From Mycobacteriales bacterium (lineage in GTDB: Bacteria > Actinomycetota > Actinomycetes > JAFAQI01): DNA of 64,000 bases. This document shows, piece after piece, positions 6,565 through 60,338 of this stretch. Under the pieces are notes generated by a model that had not been told where the DNA came from, did no database searches, and saw only the letters and a program-made list of their open reading frames with translations. The DNA is taken from the NCBI GenBank assembly GCA_035550655.1, contig DASZOU010000023.1, positions 26,416-90,415 on the forward strand, read 5' to 3'. How positions within the stretch are numbered: the first letter of the stretch is position 1; every line of letters starts with the position of its first letter. A program made the translations under genes and the position numbers.

Positions 6565-7865
6565 GCGCCACCCCCCTCGACTCGCATCACACTTGCAACG
6601 GCGCGAACAACGTCCAACTGGCGCAGCTCTTCCACGGTGGCGGACAGGGCCGCGTCGGTTGCGTCGTGGGTCACGAGGTCCAGCGTCGCATCGTCACCGT
6701 GTCCCTCTTGCCGAACCGTCTGGATCGACACGTCGTGCACGGCGAATGCCTGCGCGATGCTGGCGAGCACACCCGCCTTGTCCGCCACATCCAGGCTGAC
6801 GTGGTAGCGCGTGATGGTCTCTCCCATCGGCCGGATCGGGAGCGCGGCGTACGACGAGTCGCCGGCACCGCGCGCGCCGGACAGCCGGTTCCGGCAGACG
6901 GCCACCAGATCGCCGAGGACTGCGCTCGCGGTCGGCGCGCCGCCGGCACCGCGGCCGTAGAACATCAGCTGGCCCGCAGCGTCGGCCTCGATGAACACGG
7001 CGTTGTACGCGTCGCGGACGCCGGCGAGCGGGTGGCTGAGCGGAAGGATCGCCGGGTGCACTCGCACGCCGACCGACTCACGCCCGTTGCGGTCGGGGGC
7101 GCGCTCGGCAATCGCAAGCAGCTTCACGACACCACCCATGTCGCGCGCGCTCGCGACGTCGCCGGCAGTCACGTCGGAGATGCCTTCGCGATGTACGTCG
7201 GCGGCGGTCACCCTGGTGTGGAAGGCGAGACCGGCAAGAATCGCGGCCTTCGCCGCCGCGTCGAACCCGTCCACATCCGCCGACGGGTCGGCCTCGGCGT
7301 AGCCGAGCGCCTGCGCCTCCTCGAGCGCGTCGGAGAAGCTCGCGCCGGTGCTGTCCATCTTGGTCAGGATGTAGTTGGTGGTCCCGTTGACGATGCCGAT
7401 CACCCGGTTGACGCGGTCGCCGGCGAGCGACTCGCGAAGCGGCCGCAGCAGCGGGATCGCGCCCGCGACGCTGGCCTCGCAATAGAGATCGGTGTTGCCG
7501 CGGCGCGCCGCGTCGTACAGCGTGCCGCCGTCCTCGGCGAGCAGGGCCTTGTTGGCGGTCACCACGGACGCGCCACGCTCGAGCGCCGTCACCAGCAGGG
7601 AGCGGGCAGGCTCGATGCCGCCGATGACCTCGATGACGACGTCGACGTCCTCGCGCGCGACCAGGGCGGCGCTGTCAGTGGTGAACAGCGACGGATCGAC
7701 AGCGACGTCACGAGAGCGCTGCGGCCGGCGTACGGCGATGCCGGCGATCTCCAGCGGTGCGCCGATGCGCTGCGCAAGGTCGCCACTGTGCGCACCGATC
7801 AGCCGCACGACCTCGCTGCCGACGACACCGCAACCCAGCATCGCGATCTTCAACGGTTTGCTCAT
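6561..7865 (-). CDS. hom: Homoserine dehydrogenase with ACT domain
   Basis: [34 protein letters not shown]; ATGA overlap with lysA. Confidence 0.95.
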
Positions 7866-9244
7866 CCGAGATCCAGCCCCAGCAGGTCGTCGAGAGTCTC
7901 GCGCCGCACCATGACGCGGCTCGCGCCATCCTTGACTGCGACGACCGGTGGTCGTGGCACTGCGTTGTAGTTGCTGGCCATCGAGCGACAGTAGGCGCCC
8001 GTGGCCGCGACGGCGAGCAGATCCCCGGGGGCAAGGTCCTGCGGCAGCCACAGATCACGCACGACGATGTCGCCCGCCTCGCAGTGTTTGCCGACCAGCC
8101 GCGCCAGCATCGGCGCCGCATCACTGTCCCGCGATGCCAGCACACAGGTGTACGACGCGTCGTACAGCGCGGTGCGGATGTTGTCGCTCATCCCGCCATC
8201 AACGCTGACGTAGGTCCTGATGCCGTCGATCTCCTTGACGGTTCCGACCTCGTAGAGGGTGACGCCGGCGGGGCCGACGATCGCGCGGCCCGGCTCGACG
8301 GCAAGCCGCGGCACCGGAAGCGCGGCGGCCTCGCACTCGCGCTCGACGATCAGGCGCAGCTGCTTCGCGACCTCGGCGACGTCGGCCGGGTCGTCGTCGG
8401 GCGTGTAGGCGATACCGAGCCCGCCACCGAGGTCGAGCTCGGGCAAGGTCAAACCCACCACGTCGCGCACTGTCGCAAGCAGCCCGACGACGCGGTGAGC
8501 AGCGACCTCGAAGCCCGCGGTGTCGAAGATCTGCGAGCCGATGTGGCTGTGGAGGCCGACCAGCTCGAGCGACGGCAGCGCGACGACGCGTCGTACCGCC
8601 TCGAGCGCGGCACCCCCGGCGAGAGAGAACCCGAACTTCTGGTCCTCGTGTGCCGTCGCGATGAACTCATGGGTGTGCGCCTCGACGCCGACCGTGACGC
8701 GGACGAGCACCCGCTGCCTGACGCCGGCCGCCTCCGCCACGTGGGCGAGCCGCGCGATCTCGTGGTCGCTGTCGACGACCACCCGGCCGACTCCGGCTGC
8801 GACCGCGGCCTCGAGCTCGCCGCGGGACTTGTTGTTCCCGTGCATGAGGATCCGCTCGGCCGGGAAGCCTGCGGCGAGCGCGGTCGCCAGCTCACCGCCA
8901 CTCGACACGTCGAGCGACAGGCCTTCTTCTCGCACCCAGGCCGCGACGCCCTTCGACAGGAACGCCTTCGCCGCGTAATAGATATCGGTGTCATCGCCGA
9001 AGGCGGCGCGATAGCCCCGGCACCGGCTCCGGACATCGTCTTCGGACAGGACATACACCGGGGTGCCGTGCGCGGCGGCGAGGTCGCGTACGTCGCAGCC
9101 ACCGAGGTGCATCACTCCGCCGACGCGTTCAGCCCCGAGCGGCCAGATCCGCGGGTCCAGCTCACCGAACGCGGCAGGGGGCGCCCCGAGGGGGTGACTC
9201 GTCGTCGGGTCGGCATGCATCGCGCCGGCCGGGTGGGCCTTCAT
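7862..9244 (-). CDS. lysA: Diaminopimelate decarboxylase
   Basis: YAAKAF PLP lysine, [22 protein letters not shown]. Confidence 0.95.
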
Positions 9245-18129: not shown

Positions 18130-19022
18130 CCACCCACTGGGGATACCTGCACCTCGCCTTCGCGCAGCATGCGCTCATCGCCGCATCGATCGTGGCGGTG
18201 ATCAGCGGTGTCGTCGGCCCGTTCGTCATCACCCGCGGCATGTCCTTCGCCGTCCACGGTGCCGCGGAGCTCGCACTGACCGGTGCCGCAGCGGGACTGC
18301 TGATCGCCAACGATGCCGTTTCGGGCGCCCTGGTCGGTTCCGTCGTCGTGGCGGGGGCATTCGGTGTTCTCGCCGTCCGGGAGCGGGAGCGTGACTCCGC
18401 GATCGGCGTCGTGCTCGGTCTCGGTCTCGGTCTCGGCTTCTACCTGTTGCACTTCTACCACGGGTTCGAAACCGAAGCGCTGGACATCCTCGTCGGGCAG
18501 ATCACCTCTGTCGGCACCACGCAGATCGAGATCCTCGTCGCGGTCGCACTCGCCGTGCTCGTCGCGATGATTGCGTTGTACCGGCCGCTTACCTTCGCCA
18601 GCGTCGACCTCGATCTTGCGGAAGCCCGCGGCGTCCGCACCCGGCTCGTCGGGCTGTTGTTCCTGCTGCTGCTGTGCGTGACCGTTACCGAGGCCGCGCA
18701 GGTGGTCGGGACCGTCCTCGTGCTCAGCCTCGTCATCACCCCGGCCGCGGCGGCCCAGCGCCTGTCCGCCCACCCCGGGGTCGTCATTGGGCTCTCCACC
18801 GTCTTTGCGCTCATCGCCGCCGACGGCGGCCTGCTCGTCAACATCGTCTACGTGCCCGACGTCCGGGCCAGTTCCTTCATCACCTTCATCGCGTTCGCGA
18901 TCTACGCTCTCGCCCGGATCGCCGCAGCAACTCGTCATTCGCTGGGCGGTCGCGGCGAGCTCCCCGCCGACCCGGAGCACTCGGATGCCACGGCAGACGT
19001 GACCGACGGAGCGGTTGGCTAA
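18126..19022 (+). CDS. Zn/Mn ABC permease of system 2 (ZnuB-like)
   Basis: FAVHGAAEL, VGTVLVLSLVITPAAAA; ATGA overlap. Confidence 0.88.
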   Translation: MTTHWGYLHLAFAQHALIAASIVAVISGVVGPFVITRGMSFAVHGAAELALTGAAAGLLIANDAVSGALVGSVVVAGAFGVLAVRERERDSAIGVVLGLGLGLGFYLLHFYHGFETEALDILVGQITSVGTTQIEILVAVALAVLVAMIALYRPLTFASVDLDLAEARGVRTRLVGLLFLLLLCVTVTEAAQVVGTVLVLSLVITPAAAAQRLSAHPGVVIGLSTVFALIAADGGLLVNIVYVPDVRASSFITFIAFAIYALARIAAATRHSLGGRGELPADPEHSDATADVTDGAVG

Positions 19023-19516: not shown

Positions 19517-20004
19517 GCACTTCCCGCAGCGCAGCACCGCCGCCTCCGACGCAACAGGGGGCGGCGGTCGAGCGTCCGGTCGCACGCCTACGCGCCACTC
19601 GCCAAGCGGCGGCGATCGACGAGGTTCTGGCGGCGAACCATGGCTTCCGCAGCGCCCACGAGGTGTACGACGAACTGCGTCGGCGAGGTGAGCGTGTCGG
19701 TATGACGACCGTCTACCGGCAACTCAAGCTGCTCGCCGACTCCGGCGTTCTCGACGTGGTCAACCGCCCCGACGGCGAGGCCGGGTACCGGCTGTGCGGG
19801 CCGACCGCCGCCGAGGCGAACGGGCACCATCACCATCTCGTCTGCAAAGTCTGCGGCTACACGGTCGAAGTCGAGGGCCCCGAGGTCGAGCGGTGGGCAG
19901 ACCGAGTCGCGTCAGACGCCGGCTTCACCAACGTCACCCACACCGTCGAGATCTTTGGCGACTGCGGACGGCACTCCCCGCGAAGCCGGCGCAAGAGCTC
20001 CTAG
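19513..20004 (+). CDS. zur: Fur-family zinc uptake regulator (Zur/FurB); probable CTG start
   Basis: RATRQ, FRSAHEV, TTVYRQL, HHHLVCKVCG, FGDC; no ATG/GTG/TTG in frame between the peptide and the DNA-binding helix, but a CTGA overlap at 19513. Confidence 0.82.
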   Translation: MSTSRSAAPPPPTQQGAAVERPVARLRATRQAAAIDEVLAANHGFRSAHEVYDELRRRGERVGMTTVYRQLKLLADSGVLDVVNRPDGEAGYRLCGPTAAEANGHHHHLVCKVCGYTVEVEGPEVERWADRVASDAGFTNVTHTVEIFGDCGRHSPRSRRKSS

Positions 20005-20279
20005 CTGCCCTTTGCGGCGGACTTCAGCGTCTGGCCCGGCGTCAGCTTCGCGCTGAACCCGGCGGGAACCGTCATCGGCTCACCGGTGTGCGGGTTGCGC
20101 CCCTGACGCTCAGCGCGGCTGACCCGCTCCGCGGTGAGGAATCCCGGCACGGTGACCTTCTCGCCTCGAGCGAGCGCTTCCGCCAGCACATCTCGCGTCC
20201 CATCGAGAGCCATCCCCACATCGGCGCCCAGCAGCCCGGTACGCCGCGCGACTTCCTCAATCAGCTCCGAGCGATTCAT
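20001..20279 (-). CDS. hup: HU-family DNA-binding protein
   Basis: MNRSELIEEVA...VTVPGF...RAERQGRNPHTGE; AGGAG RBS. Confidence 0.9.
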   Translation of the reverse strand: MNRSELIEEVARRTGLLGADVGMALDGTRDVLAEALARGEKVTVPGFLTAERVSRAERQGRNPHTGEPMTVPAGFSAKLTPGQTLKSAAKGS

Positions 20280-20339
20280 GAACACTCCTGGCGAAGGTCG
20301 GCGGGTCGGCGTTGCTCCGACCTCATGTGGGATCTATGT

Positions 20340-20360
20340 TATCGGATGTGGACCCCAATA
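20340..20360. promoter_or_regulatory. Inverted repeat / candidate Zur-type operator between hup and the CobW-like gene
   Basis: TTATCGG-N15-CCGATAA at 20339-20367; the minus-strand 21-mer TATTG-N11-CGATA resembles the mycobacterial Zur box arms. Confidence 0.3.
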
Positions 20361-21456
20361 CCGATAAGGCCCCCGAGTCCGTGCCTTGCGTCGTCGTTTC
20401 CGCCCCCCGAGCCGACCTGCGCGACGAGTGCTGCTGGGCGATCCTCCGAGATGTTCCATCCGCGCGTACGGTGCGCTACGACGTCGTGACGCTGCCAGGC
20501 GGACGGGGCTTCCGCCGCACCATCAGTGAGAGCGGCTGCCTTGTCGAGCAGCACGAAATCGACATCACGACCCACTGCATGACCTGCGCAATCCGCATCG
20601 ACCGCTCGTCACCCTCGAGCGCCTGCGGCGCAGCGGCAGCTCTCCGGTCATCGTGGGCCTACCGGTCGGGACGAACGTCTCGTCGGTCGTCGCCGCGCTC
20701 GATGGCGGCGTCCGGATCGAACCCGAGCTGTCCCCAGTCGCCGTGCGCAGCGTGGTACTCGCCGTTGACGCCATGACGGTCGTCGAGGACCTCACCGGGG
20801 AGGACCAGCTCGTCGACCGGGGGCAGCACTGGGAGGACACGGACCGCCGCTCCGTGGGCGAAGTACTGGCGGCCGGCATCGACTTCGCCGACCAGGTCAT
20901 CATCGACGGCGACGGCGATCCGGCCGCGCGGGCGTTGCTCTCCCACCTCGCGGGAGCCCGCGTGTCGGACCTGCAAAGCCTGGACGGGCGGCGCCTGGTC
21001 GGGACGAACCGCGACCCAGAGGCCGCCTACAGCCGCATCGACCCGCTGCAGGTCAGGCCCGACGGGGACACGACGCTCAGCGGCGCTTGGACTCTCGACC
21101 TCGCGTCGTGGCGGCCGATGCACCCCGAACGGCTCCACCGTCGACTGGCCGACCTCGCCACCGGGCGGCTGCGCGGTCGCGGTCGTTTCTGGCTGCCGAC
21201 CCGGCCCGACACCGTTTGCGTCTGGGACAACGCCGGGGCGCAGCTCAGCGTCGGCGACGGCGGCGACTGGAGTGGCGAGGCACCCAGCACCCGCCTCGTC
21301 ATCACCGGGATCGACACCGCAGACCGAGATCGAATCCTCGATGCCTTCGAAGCCACCCTGATGACCGACAGCGAGCTCGTGCGAGGGCTGGCCAGCTGGG
21401 TCGGGCGCGACGACGGCCTGGACACCTGGCTGGGCTCGAGAACGACCATCACATGA
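20348..21456 (+). pseudogene. CobW/P47K (Mrf-like) zinc-associated protein, frameshifted at ~20603
   Basis: Frame A gives HCMTCAIRID; frame B resumes LVTLERL...VIVGLPVG, then QIDFADQV-like, RPMHPERL and RGRGRFWLPTRP CobW_C motifs; one base missing at GAC-CG-CTC. Confidence 0.72.
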
Positions 21457-21489
21457 GCGACGAGGGGTGCAGCGTGGAGTGCTGATCGC

Positions 21490-21562
21490 ATGTGACATTG
21501 GTGTCGCGAATCGCGACGTCTATGTGACATGCGTGTCGTGATTCACCGCCCCTATGTGACAT
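21490..21562. repeat. 32-bp-period degenerate tandem repeat with ATGTGACAT core (3 cores)
   Basis: ATGTGACAT at 21490, 21522 and 21554; units 1 and 2 also share GTGTCG. Confidence 0.8.
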
Positions 21563-21575
21563 ACGAGCGAGCCGG

Positions 21576-21980
21576 TTACTCCGAAGTCTTCTTCTTCGCC
21601 CGAGGAACGGCTACCGGACGCGGCCTGACACCCGAGAGCGGGTAGCCGGCCGCCCGCATCGCAGCCAATGCCTCGGCCAGGATCCGTTCGCCGTCCTCCT
21701 CGGTCCGCCGCATCATCAAGAACTCGTACGGCGTACGCGGGAAGAACCGAGGGCGCACCGCGGCAGGGGCCGATCCACGCTCCAACGAAGCCGGCCCGCT
21801 GCACACCTGGCACGGCCAGTCGGTCGGCGGCTCGATGTCGGCCGCGAAGGCGGCGGATGTGTGGTGATCAGAGGCACACCAGTAGTGCGCGACGCGCCGT
21901 GCAGCTGGTTCCCCGCCTCGGTCGATCTGGTTGCTGGCTGACACGAGCCGGTTGCCGCGCATGCCCGAGCGCCGCTTCAT
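21576..21980 (-). CDS. rbpA: RbpA-family RNA polymerase-binding protein (divergent paralogue)
   Basis: MRGNRL...DRG..AARR..YWC..DH...FAADIEPP.DWPCQVC...PRTPYEFLMMRRTEE aligns by eye with the RbpA core and sigma-interaction domain. Confidence 0.82.
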   Translation of the reverse strand: MKRRSGMRGNRLVSASNQIDRGGEPAARRVAHYWCASDHHTSAAFAADIEPPTDWPCQVCSGPASLERGSAPAAVRPRFFPRTPYEFLMMRRTEEDGERILAEALAAMRAAGYPLSGVRPRPVAVPRAKKKTSE

Positions 21981-22666
21981 GCCGCGCTCACCGCGGGCAG
22001 CAGCCCCTCATGACGCGCGACGCGAACCGCGAGCGCCACCGTCACCGCGGCGCCCAGCACTGCCGCGGAAGGCGTGAACACCGTCTTGGCCGCGACGAAC
22101 CCGGTCACCGACAACGACTGCAGCAACCACAGCGTCACTCCGGCCTTGACCGCGCAGATCGCGGCCCACATCACGGTCAGCCTCGTGAACAGCGACTGGA
22201 CGCGGGGTCGCGCCGCCACGTCGTGGGTCATCGGGTAGAACTCTGCAGCCAACCGCGCCACCGCCGGTCTGGCCGTCAGCAAGGACAGCAAGAAGACGGC
22301 TGACACCACGGCATCGCCGAGTGCCGGCTGCAAGAAGTAGACGAGCGTGCTGCCGGTGGCGAAGGCCAAAATCGTCTTGCCGGTCAGCCCAGCGACGGTG
22401 AGCCACAGCAGCGCCGAGGTAGGCCGCCTCGTCCGCATCCGCCACAGCACGCTGGCGTAGCACCAGGTGAGCGCGGCCACCAGGGCGACCCAGATGTCAG
22501 CAACGAGGAGGCAGACGTAGAACAAGGCCGTCGGCACGACGATGGCGACCAGGAGATTCGTCGCGATCCGCCGAACCACAGTCGCGACCCGGGGCCCCGG
22601 CGGCAACGCCGGTAGAGAGCGCGACGGCGCCGGGCAGTTCGTGTCCGGCGCCGGCGCGGTCATCAT
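21977..22666 (-). CDS. Polytopic membrane protein (VC0807/DUF3159-like)
   Basis: About six hydrophobic segments; YFLQP and RPAVARLAAEFYP patterns; TGATG coupling to cspA. Confidence 0.6.
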   Translation of the reverse strand: MMTAPAPDTNCPAPSRSLPALPPGPRVATVVRRIATNLLVAIVVPTALFYVCLLVADIWVALVAALTWCYASVLWRMRTRRPTSALLWLTVAGLTGKTILAFATGSTLVYFLQPALGDAVVSAVFLLSLLTARPAVARLAAEFYPMTHDVAARPRVQSLFTRLTVMWAAICAVKAGVTLWLLQSLSVTGFVAAKTVFTPSAAVLGAAVTVALAVRVARHEGLLPAVSAA

Positions 22667-22869
22667 CAGACCGGATGAACGTTGGCGGCCTGCGGGCCCT
22701 TCTGGCCTGCAGTCACCTCGAACTCGACCCGCTGGTTCTCGTCAAGGCTGCGGTAGCCGTCGGTGGCAATCGACGAGTGATGAACGAAGACGTCGGCGCC
22801 GCCGCCGTCCTGCTCGATGAACCCGAAGCCCTTTTCCGCATTGAACCACTTGACCGTGCCTTGCGCCAT
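22666..22869 (-). CDS. cspA: Cold-shock protein
   Basis: [23 protein letters not shown] (RNP1/RNP2); GGAGG RBS. Confidence 0.97.
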
Positions 22870-22960
22870 CTTCTTGTCCCTCCGGGAATCCAGGTACGCA
22901 CACTGCGGACCGGTGGTCACACGGAGCCTGACGGCCGGCGAAAAGACAATCGCGACAAGC

Positions 22961-22994
22961 AAAAAGCGCCCGCTGTCGACATCCCGCGGGCGCT
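22961..22994 (-). terminator. Intrinsic terminator-like hairpin upstream of cspA
   Basis: Minus strand AGCGCCCGC-N12-GCGGGCGCT-TTTTG. Confidence 0.7.
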
Positions 22995-23104
22995 CAAGAA
23001 CGTTCGAGAAATGCAAACTGCAACCGCTTTGACGCTACCACGCTGCGCCCTTGCTGTCTGGTTCGGAATCCGCCGCGGACCACGCCGGCTGTCGGCTCCT
23101 CGGC

Positions 23105-23998
23105 TCAGCTGTCCGCTACGACCCGGAAACCGATGTTTCCCGTCGAGTCGCCGGGGTGGCTGTGGTCTCGCGCCGCGACGCGGTAGCGGTTGCAGTAAGA
23201 GTCGTGGCAGAGATACGACCCGCCGCGCCGAACGCGCTGGTCCGGATCGGTGTTGCCGTCGACGGACCACGCGTCGGCAGTCCACTCCCACACGTTCCCG
23301 ACAACTTGATAGAGACCGAAGCCGTTCGGCCGGTAGCTCTTGACCGGCGCCGTGCCCAGATATCCGTCGCGCTGCGTGTTGTGCGTCGGGAACTCGCCCT
23401 GCCAGATGTTGCAGCGCCACCTCCCATCGGGGCACAGCTCATCGCCCCACGGATACACGGCGCCCTCCAGCCCGCCCCTTGCCGCCCGCTCCCACTCCGC
23501 TTCCGACGGCAGCCGGGTGCCGGACCACGCGCAGTACGCCTCGGCGTCACGTGCGGAGACGTGTACGACGGGATGGTCCTGCCGGCTGGCCACGTCGGAG
23601 CCTGGGCCCATCGGCGCCCGCCAGCTCGCGCCCTGGACGGCGCACCACCACTCCGCGCCGGCGACCCGTCCCGTGACGGCAGCGGGATCGGAGACCAGGG
23701 CGTCGAACACGAACGACCAGCCGGCGGACTCGGCCTCGGTGACGTAGCCGGCGGCCTTGGCGAACGCTGCGAACTGCTGGTTGGTGACCGCCGCGGGGCC
23801 GATCCGGAAGCCCTCGAGTGTCACCCGGCGCACCGGGCCCTCGCCCTCGCGCGGGTTGGCGAGCGGACCGTCGTAGCCCATCGAGAAGGTCCCTGCGGGT
23901 ATCGCCACGAGCGGCGGCTTGCGCCGGCTTCGTGCAGCGGCGCCGCCCGCAACAGGCGAGTCGTCACGGCCGGCACCCGGCGCGCAACACGAACTCAC
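23105..23998 (-). CDS. Formylglycine-generating enzyme (SUMF1 family)
   Basis: HPVVHVS, RLPSEAEWE, GNVWEW, RGGSYLCHDSYCNRYR with both catalytic Cys. Confidence 0.9.
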   Translation of the reverse strand: MSSCCAPGAGRDDSPVAGGAAARSRRKPPLVAIPAGTFSMGYDGPLANPREGEGPVRRVTLEGFRIGPAAVTNQQFAAFAKAAGYVTEAESAGWSFVFDALVSDPAAVTGRVAGAEWWCAVQGASWRAPMGPGSDVASRQDHPVVHVSARDAEAYCAWSGTRLPSEAEWERAARGGLEGAVYPWGDELCPDGRWRCNIWQGEFPTHNTQRDGYLGTAPVKSYRPNGFGLYQVVGNVWEWTADAWSVDGNTDPDQRVRRGGSYLCHDSYCNRYRVAARDHSHPGDSTGNIGFRVVADS

Positions 23999-57953: not shown

Positions 57954-60338
57954 GTGAGCGCCGCTTCGACTCAGGCGCGGGCGACGCCTGCCGCCCCGGC
58001 AGAGGTGCACGGGCTGTCCGATGCGGAAGTGGCGCTGCGGCTCGCGGCCGGGCGCGACAACACCGTGACGATTGGCTCGAGCCGCAGCCTCGCGGCAATC
58101 CTGCGCAGCAACGTCCTCACCGTCTTCAACGCGATCCTGCTCACGTTGTTCGGCCTCACGCTCGCGACCGGGCGCTGGCAGAACGCGCTGTTCGGCTTGG
58201 TGATCGTCGCCAACGTGGTGCTCGGGGTCACGCAGGAGATCAGGGCGAAACGAACACTCGACCGGCTGACGGTTCTCACCGCTCCCCGCGCGCGGGTTCG
58301 GCGATCCGGCGTCATCCGCGAGATCGACCGCGAGGCGGTGGTCCTCGACGACCTGCTCGTAGTCCGCCCGGGCGACCAGGTCGTCGCGGATGCCGTGGTG
58401 GTGCGAGAGACCGGTCTGGAGATCGACGAGTCGCTCTTGACCGGTGAGGCGGAGCCGGTCGCCAAACGGTACGGCGACGAGGTGCGTTCCGGCGCATTCG
58501 TCGTGGCCGGGTCGGGAGAGTGCCGCGTCGTCCGGGTCGGCGCGGACGGCTACTCGGCTCGGCTTTCCGCCGAGGCAAGACGATTCTCGGTTGCGCCCTC
58601 CGAGCTCGTCACCGGCACCAACCGGCTGCTGCGATGGATTGCCGCGTTGATGCTCCTGGTCGGCCCGCTGCTGCTGGTAGGGCAGCTCGCAAGCCCGGAC
58701 AACAAGAGCTGGCGGCAGTCCGTCACGGGCATGACGGCTGCCCTCGTCGGCATGGTGCCCGAAGGACTTGTGCTGCTGACCACCGTGGCCTTCACCGTGG
58801 GTGTCCTGGCGCTCGCGCGGCGTCGCATCCTCGTCCAGGAGCTCCCGGCGGTCGAGGGGCTGGCTCGCGTCGATGTGCTGTGCATCGACAAGACCGGAAC
58901 CCTGACCGACGGCGATCTCGCGGTGTCGGAGGTCGACGTCTGCGACGGAGTCGATGCTGGCGATGTACCAGCCGCGCTCGCCCTGCTCGCCGCCGGCGAG
59001 GACGCGAACGCGACGGCCCGAGCGATTGCGGTCCGATATCCGGCGAGCGCATGGCGGGCAGAGCATCGCTGGCCGTTCTCGTCACAGCGCAAGTGGTCGG
59101 CCGTGACGGCCGCGGAGCACGGCAGCTGGGTCCTCGGCGCGCCTGAGGTGCTCCTCCCCCATGTCGACTCAACCGTTGCAGCGTCGCTTTCCGATCGGGT
59201 GGCGCAGATCGCGACCGCAGGCCATCGTGTGCTGCTCCTGACCGCCGGTCCGAGGCCGCCCACCGAGCAGGGACTCGTCGCAGCGATGCGACCAGCAGCC
59301 CTCCTCACCCTCACCGAGCACATCCGCGAGGACGCCGCATCGACTCTCGCGTTCTTCGCCGACCAGGGCGTACGGATCAAGGTCATCTCGGGAGACAACC
59401 CGGTAACGGTTGCTGCCGTCGCCGTTGCTGCCGGGCTGGCAGGCGCCGAAGCGCCGGGGATCGACGCGCGGACGCTTCCCACCGACCCCGCCGAGCTCGG
59501 CGAGGTCGTCGATCAGGCGGTCATCATCGGACGTACGACGCCGCACCAGAAACGCGACCTGGTGCGCGCCCTCCAGCAACGCGGTCACGTCGTGGCGATG
59601 ACCGGCGACGGCGTGAACGACTTGCTTGCTCTCAAGGACGCCGACGTCGGGATCGCGATGGCCGGCGGAGCGCCGGCGACCCGTGGCGTCGCACAGCTGG
59701 TCTTGATGGACAACCGCTTCGCCTCGCTGCCGCACGCCGTCGCGGAAGGCCGGCGGGTGATCGCGAACATCGAGCGCGCGAGCAACCTCTTCCTCGTCAA
59801 GAACGCGTATTCAATCGTCCTGGCGATCTGCTCGACGGCAAGCTTGTTGGCCTATCCGCTCGAGCCGATCCAGCTCACGATGGTGTCGACGTTGACCATT
59901 GGGCTCCCCGGCCTGTTCCTGGCGTTCGTGCCGAACAACCGTCGCTACCAGCCGGGCTTCCTGCGTCGCGTCCTCAGGTTCTCGATGCCGATGGGGCTGG
60001 TCGTCGGGATCACGACCTACGGCGCGTACTGGACGACCCGCGGCGTGGAGCCTGCGGCAACCGCCGCAGACGCGCGGACAACCGCGACCATCACGGCTTT
60101 GCTCGTCTCACTCGGCGTACTCACCGCGTTGATCCGTCCGCTCAGCCGATGGCGTCGGCTGCTGGTGGCTGCGCTCGCCGGGCTCGCCGCGCTGATCGTT
60201 GCGGTGCCGGCGTTGGGGCACTCCGTCTTCCTGCTCGACGTGACGCCGAGCCGGGTCCTGATTGCGGTCGGAGTCGCCGGCGTGGGGCTGGCCGGGATCG
60301 AGGCGCTCCGCAGATGGGCGATGGCGTCGAACCGCTGA
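57954..60338 (+). CDS. Cation-transporting P-type ATPase (CtpE-like)
   Basis: LTGEA, MVPEGL, DKTGTLT, SGDN, MTGDGVND. Confidence 0.92.
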   Translation: MSAASTQARATPAAPAEVHGLSDAEVALRLAAGRDNTVTIGSSRSLAAILRSNVLTVFNAILLTLFGLTLATGRWQNALFGLVIVANVVLGVTQEIRAKRTLDRLTVLTAPRARVRRSGVIREIDREAVVLDDLLVVRPGDQVVADAVVVRETGLEIDESLLTGEAEPVAKRYGDEVRSGAFVVAGSGECRVVRVGADGYSARLSAEARRFSVAPSELVTGTNRLLRWIAALMLLVGPLLLVGQLASPDNKSWRQSVTGMTAALVGMVPEGLVLLTTVAFTVGVLALARRRILVQELPAVEGLARVDVLCIDKTGTLTDGDLAVSEVDVCDGVDAGDVPAALALLAAGEDANATARAIAVRYPASAWRAEHRWPFSSQRKWSAVTAAEHGSWVLGAPEVLLPHVDSTVAASLSDRVAQIATAGHRVLLLTAGPRPPTEQGLVAAMRPAALLTLTEHIREDAASTLAFFADQGVRIKVISGDNPVTVAAVAVAAGLAGAEAPGIDARTLPTDPAELGEVVDQAVIIGRTTPHQKRDLVRALQQRGHVVAMTGDGVNDLLALKDADVGIAMAGGAPATRGVAQLVLMDNRFASLPHAVAEGRRVIANIERASNLFLVKNAYSIVLAICSTASLLAYPLEPIQLTMVSTLTIGLPGLFLAFVPNNRRYQPGFLRRVLRFSMPMGLVVGITTYGAYWTTRGVEPAATAADARTTATITALLVSLGVLTALIRPLSRWRRLLVAALAGLAALIVAVPALGHSVFLLDVTPSRVLIAVGVAGVGLAGIEALRRWAMASNR

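Follow-up and report, generated by a model that had tools for sequence, protein, structure and literature searches.

A 64,000-nucleotide stretch of DNA from a bacterium assigned to the Mycobacteriales (GenBank assembly GCA_035550655.1, contig DASZOU010000023.1, positions 26,416 to 90,415), referred to here in its entirety as the window, carries on its minus strand an operon of three genes encoding a cold-shock protein (Csp), a polytopic membrane protein and a small relative of RbpA, the initiation factor that docks on sigma factors and RNA polymerase (RNAP). The RbpA-like gene is a true paralogue of the canonical rbpA gene present elsewhere in the genome and, as judged by sequence phylogeny, its product belongs to an undescribed third lineage of the RbpA family, for which the Csp, and not the membrane protein, appears to be the conserved partner. 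What is new here is a lineage-restricted variant of a known protein family that is distinguished by a conserved pairing with csp genes and by the leader preceding them. On a narrow balance of probability, we favour the view that the third-lineage protein is a sigma- and RNAP-binding initiation factor which is co-transcribed with the Csp and controlled via the csp leader.

A third lineage of the RbpA family

The assembly (G000 in our numbering; 3.85 Mb in 38 contigs and 92% complete) carries three genes matching the RbpA profile PF13397. The copy on contig C36, at 7808-8116, scores 139 bits, shows the motif RTHWDMLLERR and adjoins an lnt-like gene, and it is the canonical rbpA in its classical position, the corresponding neighbourhood in Streptomyces being marked by synteny with ppm1. 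The window copy lacks the canonical motif RTHWDML(L/M)ERR in the first helix of the sigma interaction domain (SID) and has no adjacent lnt gene, while the third copy, on contig C29 at 59693-60010, scores 95 bits, carries the motif KTPFEFLMMRR and lies directly 3' of a csp gene, the membrane gene being absent from this pair. Two of the four csp genes in the assembly head csp-rbpA-like modules. A preliminary description of this DNA, made from the sequence alone, had considered the window gene to be a paralogue and not the sole, orthologous rbpA, and had proposed searching for the canonical gene elsewhere in the genome and placing the protein in an RbpA phylogeny; the copies on C36 and C29 bear out the claim, and the phylogeny is in accord with it.

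The maximum-likelihood tree was built from 65 RbpA-family proteins of this genome, 40 relatives and public metagenome-assembled genomes (MAGs), and it yielded three clades, each with starred support: canonical RbpA, a class linked to secG and a clade characterised by the motif PxEFLMMRR. The window protein lies outside the canonical clade and within the last of these, which is sister to the secG-linked class (support 100/95). Members of the two sister clades have in common an RG.R.G...E.(E/D)RG tail, a YWC..GH core and a DGE.ILAEAL second SID helix, but they differ in the helix-1 motif, which is KTHLAYV(K/R)ERR in the secG-linked class, and the latter never occurs next to csp, its genes being located directly 3' of secG in all seven genomes checked. 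To our knowledge, the secG-linked class is uncharacterised, and we found no study of its function. In all probability it is equivalent to "Cluster 4", the second RbpA cluster that is kept in 99.7% of Streptomyces near gap-pgk-tpi-secG (PMC13118837). Literature searches for an RbpA paralogue, for "RbpB" and for a csp-linked RbpA produced nothing relevant, the RbpB matches being unrelated RNA-binding proteins of Bacteroides and cyanobacteria.

The third clade itself consists of two lineages, one of the window type (RTPYEFLMMRR) and a second one (KTP[FYW]EFLMMRR), which are about 45% identical to one another. When one genome from each GTDB species was scanned, the clade was found at 38 loci, or 39 when the 30-residue fragment L050 is included, and the host MAGs, most of them of soil origin, represent uncultured Frankiaceae, "Mycobacteriales", Frankiales, Actinomycetes and Actinomycetota. 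Two outliers of the scan, a Dermatophilaceae MAG and Saccharomonospora saliphila, were assigned by the tree to the secG-linked class. Some genera of the family hold all three clades within one genome, and the possibility that the third clade consists of displaced or relocated secG-class orthologues was rejected on this basis. The genus of the window organism carries the canonical gene and one or two third-clade members and lacks the secG-linked class; there is no RbpA-like gene behind secG on contig C12. Two stretches near this secG gene (C12:17308-17706 and 18504-18776) encode the same peptide (GLEILVRPTGIFDAAAWSSSHLVA...) and may have arisen by local duplication.

As judged by its profile matches and predicted fold, the window protein is an RbpA-family member with the complete RbpA architecture. 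Its match to PF13397 extends over profile positions 3-105 of 105 (gathering score 25), and the best match in a profile search of PDB sequences was to Streptomyces RbpA, with an E value of 8.8e-26. An AlphaFold2 model, with a predicted local distance difference test score above 90 in the core, contains strands at residues 28-35, 40-46, 54-56 and 63-65 and helices at 84-91 and 94-111, and in a Foldseek comparison with the PDB ranks 1-23 were all occupied by RbpA chains, 20 of which (E <= 0.001) derive from RNAP complexes. From the N-terminus, the protein comprises a tail (RG.RL...QIDRG), a zinc-ribbon core of the CHCC type, a linker extending to R82, the two SID helices and a basic C-terminal tail. 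Within the clade the N-terminal tail, RG.RL....(Q/E).DRG, parallels the sequence LRGSRLG..SYETDRN of canonical RbpA.

Conservation was assessed from an alignment of 22 sequences, namely the window protein, 20 relatives and the canonical copy. Residues C35, H39, C57, C60, D20, R21, R91 and R92 are invariant and R82-T83-P84 and E86-F87-L88-M89-M90 are nearly so. The four cysteine and histidine residues correspond to C34/35, H38, C56 and C59 of S. coelicolor RbpA and are predicted to be zinc ligands of the Streptomyces type, found outside the Corynebacterium-Mycobacterium-Nocardia group; zinc binding by C34, H38, C56 and C59 of the S. coelicolor protein has been demonstrated. R91 and R92 match R89 and R90 of S. 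coelicolor RbpA, the double alanine mutant of which does not bind sigma-HrdB, and R88 of the M. tuberculosis protein. R82 is the equivalent of M. tuberculosis R79, which contacts the phosphate at -13/-14 and is required for activation in vitro, and within the clade this position is filled by R or K and, in rare cases, by H. The changes are concentrated in SID helix 1, where THWDMLLERR of canonical RbpA is replaced by TPYEFLMMRR, and they include M in place of E88 of S. coelicolor RbpA, a residue whose substitution by alanine apparently improved sigma binding. Both the retention of the C/H/C/C ligands and of the RT...RR frame, and the presence of an altered sequence in place of HWDML, had been recognised earlier, and the alignment agrees on each point, with PYEFLMM occurring where RbpA has HWDMLLE.

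Pairing with csp and a conserved leader

The csp gene is located directly upstream of the rbpA-like gene, on the same strand, at 31 of the 39 non-identical third-clade loci and at none of 26 canonical and secG-class loci, and therefore the arrangement is not due to chance. The two genes are separated by 31-99 nt, or they overlap, or the membrane protein gene intervenes, and at eight third-clade loci the linkage has been lost. The co-expression with an RNA chaperone that was envisaged in the preliminary description thus gains support from an apparent evolutionary conservation of the gene order. The linked csp genes encode ordinary CspA-type proteins, those of the second (type-B) lineage forming a clade of their own, and the Csp tree, being too short, does not show whether a duplication of the pair gave rise to the two csp-rbpA modules. 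In alignment with the partner proteins, the window Csp shows the RNP1 and RNP2 motifs as KGFGFI and VFVHH, respectively. Since its scores do not reach the NCBIfam equivalog cut-offs for either CspA or CspE, no specific orthologue name is justified.

The open reading frames (ORFs) of the window operon lie on the minus strand within the coordinates originally reported, and the overlaps described, TGATG at 22668-22664 (csp stop and membrane-gene start) and ATGA at 21980-21977 (membrane-gene stop and rbpA-like start), are present. The start codon of the rbpA-like gene, and with it the ATGA overlap, are considered genuine because the N-terminal sequence MKRR.. is common to homologues. The membrane protein matches the NCBIfam family VC0807_fam (NF041646) with 83.5 bits, relative to a cut-off of 65, and Pfam DUF3159 with 33.4 bits, slightly below the cut-off of 34.2, and it has about six hydrophobic segments. 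Its gene occurs between csp and the rbpA-like gene in only a part of the window-type lineage (nine unique loci). It is absent from the second csp-rbpA-like lineage and from locus L006, only its first 35 codons are left between the two genes at L004, and homologues with 59-67% identity occur singly among unrelated genes, one of them in a genome in which the rbpA-like gene has no membrane neighbour. The membrane gene appears, then, to be an optional insert that was secondarily lost at several window-type loci, and its product is likely to be dispensable for the pair because it is missing, reduced or standing alone elsewhere.

A leader of about 160 nt, located 5' of csp, is common to nine window-type loci, whatever gene stands further upstream, and we consider the region 22870-23040 (minus strand) to be a candidate for a new cis-regulatory element of actinobacterial csp genes. 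At its 5' end lies a putative promoter, an extended -10-like element of the pattern TG.TA...T for which there is no conserved -35 sequence among the nine leaders; a simple sigma-70 promoter scan found no promoter. This is followed by a box which occurs once per genome, exclusively before this csp type, and which probably marks the mRNA 5' end. Next comes a terminator-like hairpin with a GC stem of 8-10 bp, which is situated downstream of the -10-like element, 85 nt 5' of the ATG, and is present in the minimum free energy, centroid and consensus folds; a terminator scan missed it on account of the 12-nt loop, the limit of the tool being 8 nt. A further helix would pair with the Shine-Dalgarno region, and three of its base pairs show compensatory changes, with a covariation term of about zero (RNAalifold, nine sequences). 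An upstream ORF starting from the hairpin loop was considered and rejected because the frame is not conserved, owing to a 1-nt indel in L004. No match was obtained in an Rfam search of positions 21000-23600 at E<=1. The second-lineage csp genes are preceded by a different conserved leader, with the sequence TGTTAGCCT. The features of the operon and leader are collected in Table 1.

Table 1. Genes and leader elements of the window operon, and related loci; positions refer to the window unless a contig or locus is given
Feature	Position	Strand	Properties
csp	22666..22869	minus	67 aa, CspA-family cold-shock-domain protein; PF00313 107.4 bits
VC0807-family / DUF3159-like polytopic membrane protein	21977..22666	minus	229 aa; coupled translationally at both ends
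RbpA-family paralogue, PxEFLMMRR clade	21576..21980	minus	134 aa; PF13397 84.6 bits
Extended -10-like element, putative promoter	23032..23040	minus	TGGTAGCGT (TGTTACCGT or TGTTACGGT in relatives); same position in nine window-type leaders
Leader box	22999..23024	minus	GTTGCAGTTTGCATTTCTCG(A/T)ACGTT; first 20 nt identical in 9/9 leaders
Terminator-like hairpin	22966-22993	minus	GCGCCCGC-GGGATGTCGACA-GCGGGCGC; stem and loop 100% invariant in 9/9 leaders
U-rich tract after hairpin	22954-22965	minus	UUUUUG
Downstream leader helix	22877..22927	minus	CUCCG (22922-22926) with Shine-Dalgarno region CCGGAGG (22877-22886); RNAalifold consensus, nine sequences
Small stem inside Shine-Dalgarno helix	22897-22907	minus	CGCA-nnn-UGCG; RNAalifold consensus, nine sequences
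Second csp-rbpA-like module	G000 C29:59693-60267 (L002 1468-2075)	minus	38-nt gap, KTPFEFLMMRR type; downstream of dihydrouridine-synthase-like gene
secG-linked RbpA-family loci	L052, L054, L057, L061, L062, L066, L068		relatives G025-G037

The neighbourhoods of the related loci vary. On a contig of a farmland metagenome (L008, 2612-4785) the order is csp, VC0807, a 120-residue ORF without a family match, rbpA-like and DUF5994, with a universal stress protein (Usp) gene upstream of the operon and a STAS gene nearby. Loci L004 (5123-8202) and L006 (6184-7649) have in common a pair of GAF-ANTAR regulator genes and L004 also carries a fatty-acid desaturase gene, all of which represent stress- or cold-associated functions. 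In the window, a Fur/Zur-like gene (19594-20004) adjoins a CobW-like gene (20312-21456, plus strand), for which the sole match is to CobW_C, covering residues 150-235 of the frame 20653-21456. The upstream part of this gene lies in another frame (20312-20776) and lacks a family match, such that it is either a frameshifted gene or one with a degenerate GTPase domain. Convergent with the Fur-family gene, and overlapping its end by 4 nt, is a gene for an HU-type DNA-binding protein (20001-20285, minus strand; PF00216 83.6 bits). A functional tie between the operon and the adjacent zinc locus (Fur/Zur-like, CobW_C) was rejected because elsewhere in the clade the neighbouring genes are unrelated, as was a role of the RbpA-like protein as a zinc-free substitute, given that the zinc ligands are kept.

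Possible roles of the csp-linked factor

The placement of the gene behind csp suggests a transcription helper that is made jointly with a cold-shock protein. As we envisage it, the factor would dock on domain 2 of the sigma factors, of which the genus has two of group 1/2, and on RNAP, in the same manner as RbpA, and the rebuilt SID helix 1 (PYEFLMM for HWDMLLE) would alter its affinity or choice of partner. Being encoded on the same transcript as the Csp, it could retune promoter opening whenever csp is switched on, most plausibly in the cold or under a related stress where DNA melting and RNA folding are both limiting, while its dose might depend on read-through at the leader hairpin and on release of the masked ribosome-binding site. 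Induction by cold or stress, which the preliminary description had proposed together with an altered sigma preference, is what the csp linkage and the leader would lead one to expect, and the membrane protein would be an accessory passenger of one sub-lineage and not a core partner. RbpA stimulates open promoter complex (RPo) formation, and it is reported to be required at -10/-35 promoters, whereas those of the extended -10 type can do without it (PMC7403470). The putative operon promoter looks like one of the latter, consistent with this published independence, and therefore it could fire independently of the RbpA status of the cell.

Several observations weigh against this interpretation. 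SID helix 1 departs from that of canonical RbpA at four of its ten residues, and linker residue K76, described as "absolutely conserved among RbpA orthologs", coincides with F79 in a gapless alignment, with R76 and R78 nearby, although the alignment of the linker is ambiguous. There is no extra group 1/2 sigma factor in the genus, in which just two were found, adjacent to one another on one contig (C32:8681 and C32:4187), and an additional sigma partner was considered and set aside on this basis; the paralogue thus has to use the same partners as canonical RbpA, or act otherwise. For the leader, the invariance of the hairpin means that covariation cannot separate an RNA structure from a DNA operator, and the predicted folding of the entire leader is not superior to that of shuffled sequence (z = 0.18). 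Moreover, in a search of sequencing runs, soil-metagenome DNA runs carried the stretch and no RNA run did.

Because sigma partners would be shared with canonical RbpA, an activator tuned to other conditions and a competitor are both possible. As a competitor, the paralogue would fill the RbpA site on sigma domain 2 and give rise to poorer or different open complexes, such that csp induction lowered or redirected housekeeping transcription. We regard such a damper as fairly unlikely, even though it would accommodate the combination of a retained RR sigma-binding pair with the lack of a clear K76 equivalent and a different placement of the linker charge, as well as the lack of an additional sigma partner. 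The change from E to M, at the position where E88A in S. coelicolor seemed to improve sigma binding, could also make a strong competitor, and it has been reported that the N-terminal tail and core domain of mycobacterial RbpA themselves antagonise RPo stabilisation. Against these points, the R79 equivalent needed for activation in vitro is kept as R or K throughout the clade, rare exceptions apart, and the linker, with three basic residues, carries the same total charge as that of the canonical RbpA encoded by this genome. Departing further from RbpA, the zinc-ribbon protein could have lost sigma binding and work with the Csp on RNA or ribosomes. The rebuilding of SID helix 1 and the tight and old pairing with csp could be read in this way, but purifying selection acts on the entire RbpA architecture, the RNAP-threading tail RG.RL..(Q/E).DRG and the RR pair included, no sign of RNA binding is seen in the sequence and the published description of the RbpA core is that of a structural scaffold rather than a nucleic-acid binder, all of which makes a role away from RNAP quite improbable.

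It is equally doubtful that the gene is a redundant duplicate, an ordinary RbpA back-up whose csp neighbourhood is a frozen accident. Many Actinomycetes carry multiple RbpA copies and eight of the 39 loci lack the csp linkage, but this linkage has been kept in two lineages with no more than some 45% identity, it has outlasted the insertion and later loss of an intervening gene, and the clade has its own invariant motif while the other two clades are never csp-linked. The membrane protein was earlier thought capable of sequestering or signalling to the RbpA-like factor, which would resemble an anti-sigma-type switch, and the translational coupling of the window genes at both ends and the same gene order at at least eight loci would be in keeping with this. 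The claim is weak, however, and such tethering seems to us extremely improbable, given the absence of the gene from the sister module and from L006, its reduction at L004 and the existence of solitary homologues, one of them in a genome with a membrane-free rbpA-like gene.

The view that the protein is an initiation factor co-regulated with the Csp can be developed into a more specific model, which we put forward as distinctly unlikely in its full form. Factor and Csp would then constitute a dedicated "melting" module of two parts that serves transcription at low temperature, in which the former, bound to sigma domain 2 at the upstream edge of the bubble, aids promoter opening and may place the Csp on the non-template strand or the nascent RNA, while the leader hairpin serves as a Csp- or temperature-responsive valve for the doses of both proteins. 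Were it true, no condition-specific RbpA isoform would have preceded this one, and a cold-shock protein would for the first time be physically connected to the initiation complex.

Implications and comparison with known systems

RbpA has been studied almost wholly as a single essential housekeeping factor, in mycobacteria and in Streptomyces. The present results show a family composed of three ancient lineages, each tied to its own neighbour, which is lnt here (ppm1 in Streptomyces) for the canonical genes, and secG and csp for the others, and of these only the canonical lineage has been characterised. The existence of a csp-paired lineage beside the canonical factor raises the possibility that Actinobacteria swap or add RbpA isoforms in order to fit promoter opening to physical conditions. 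Moreover, the natural changes in SID helix 1, where the RR pair is kept and E is replaced by M, offer a ready probe of the affinity and specificity of the RbpA-sigma interaction. Given that the hosts are uncultured, tests will have to be performed in heterologous systems.

The proposed mode of action is the same as that of Crl and GcrA, in that a small protein docking on sigma domain 2, and lacking sequence-specific DNA binding, favours the open complex (PMC7403470). The window protein is unrelated to either of these in sequence and fold and, whereas Crl is specific for the stress sigma factor, the window factor has no known specificity.

The closest relationship is with RbpA itself (M. tuberculosis Rv2050, S. 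coelicolor SCO1421; PF13397), with which the window protein shares the four-part architecture, the Streptomyces-type CHCC ribbon, the R79 equivalent and the RR pair. It is only about 34% identical to the canonical RbpA of its own genome, and it differs in lacking a clear K76 equivalent, in having its own helix-1 motif, in being csp-linked and located outside the lnt/ppm1 neighbourhood, and in falling into a separate starred clade.

The csp leader finds its counterpart in cold-shock gene leaders of the E. coli cspA type. The 5' untranslated region of E. coli cspA carries a "cold box", and Csp proteins act as antiterminators. The leader described here is likewise long and conserved, with a 5' box, a terminator-like hairpin and a predicted structure masking the ribosome-binding site. 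It differs in showing no similarity to any Rfam family, and in belonging to an operon that encodes, in addition to the Csp, a putative RNAP factor.

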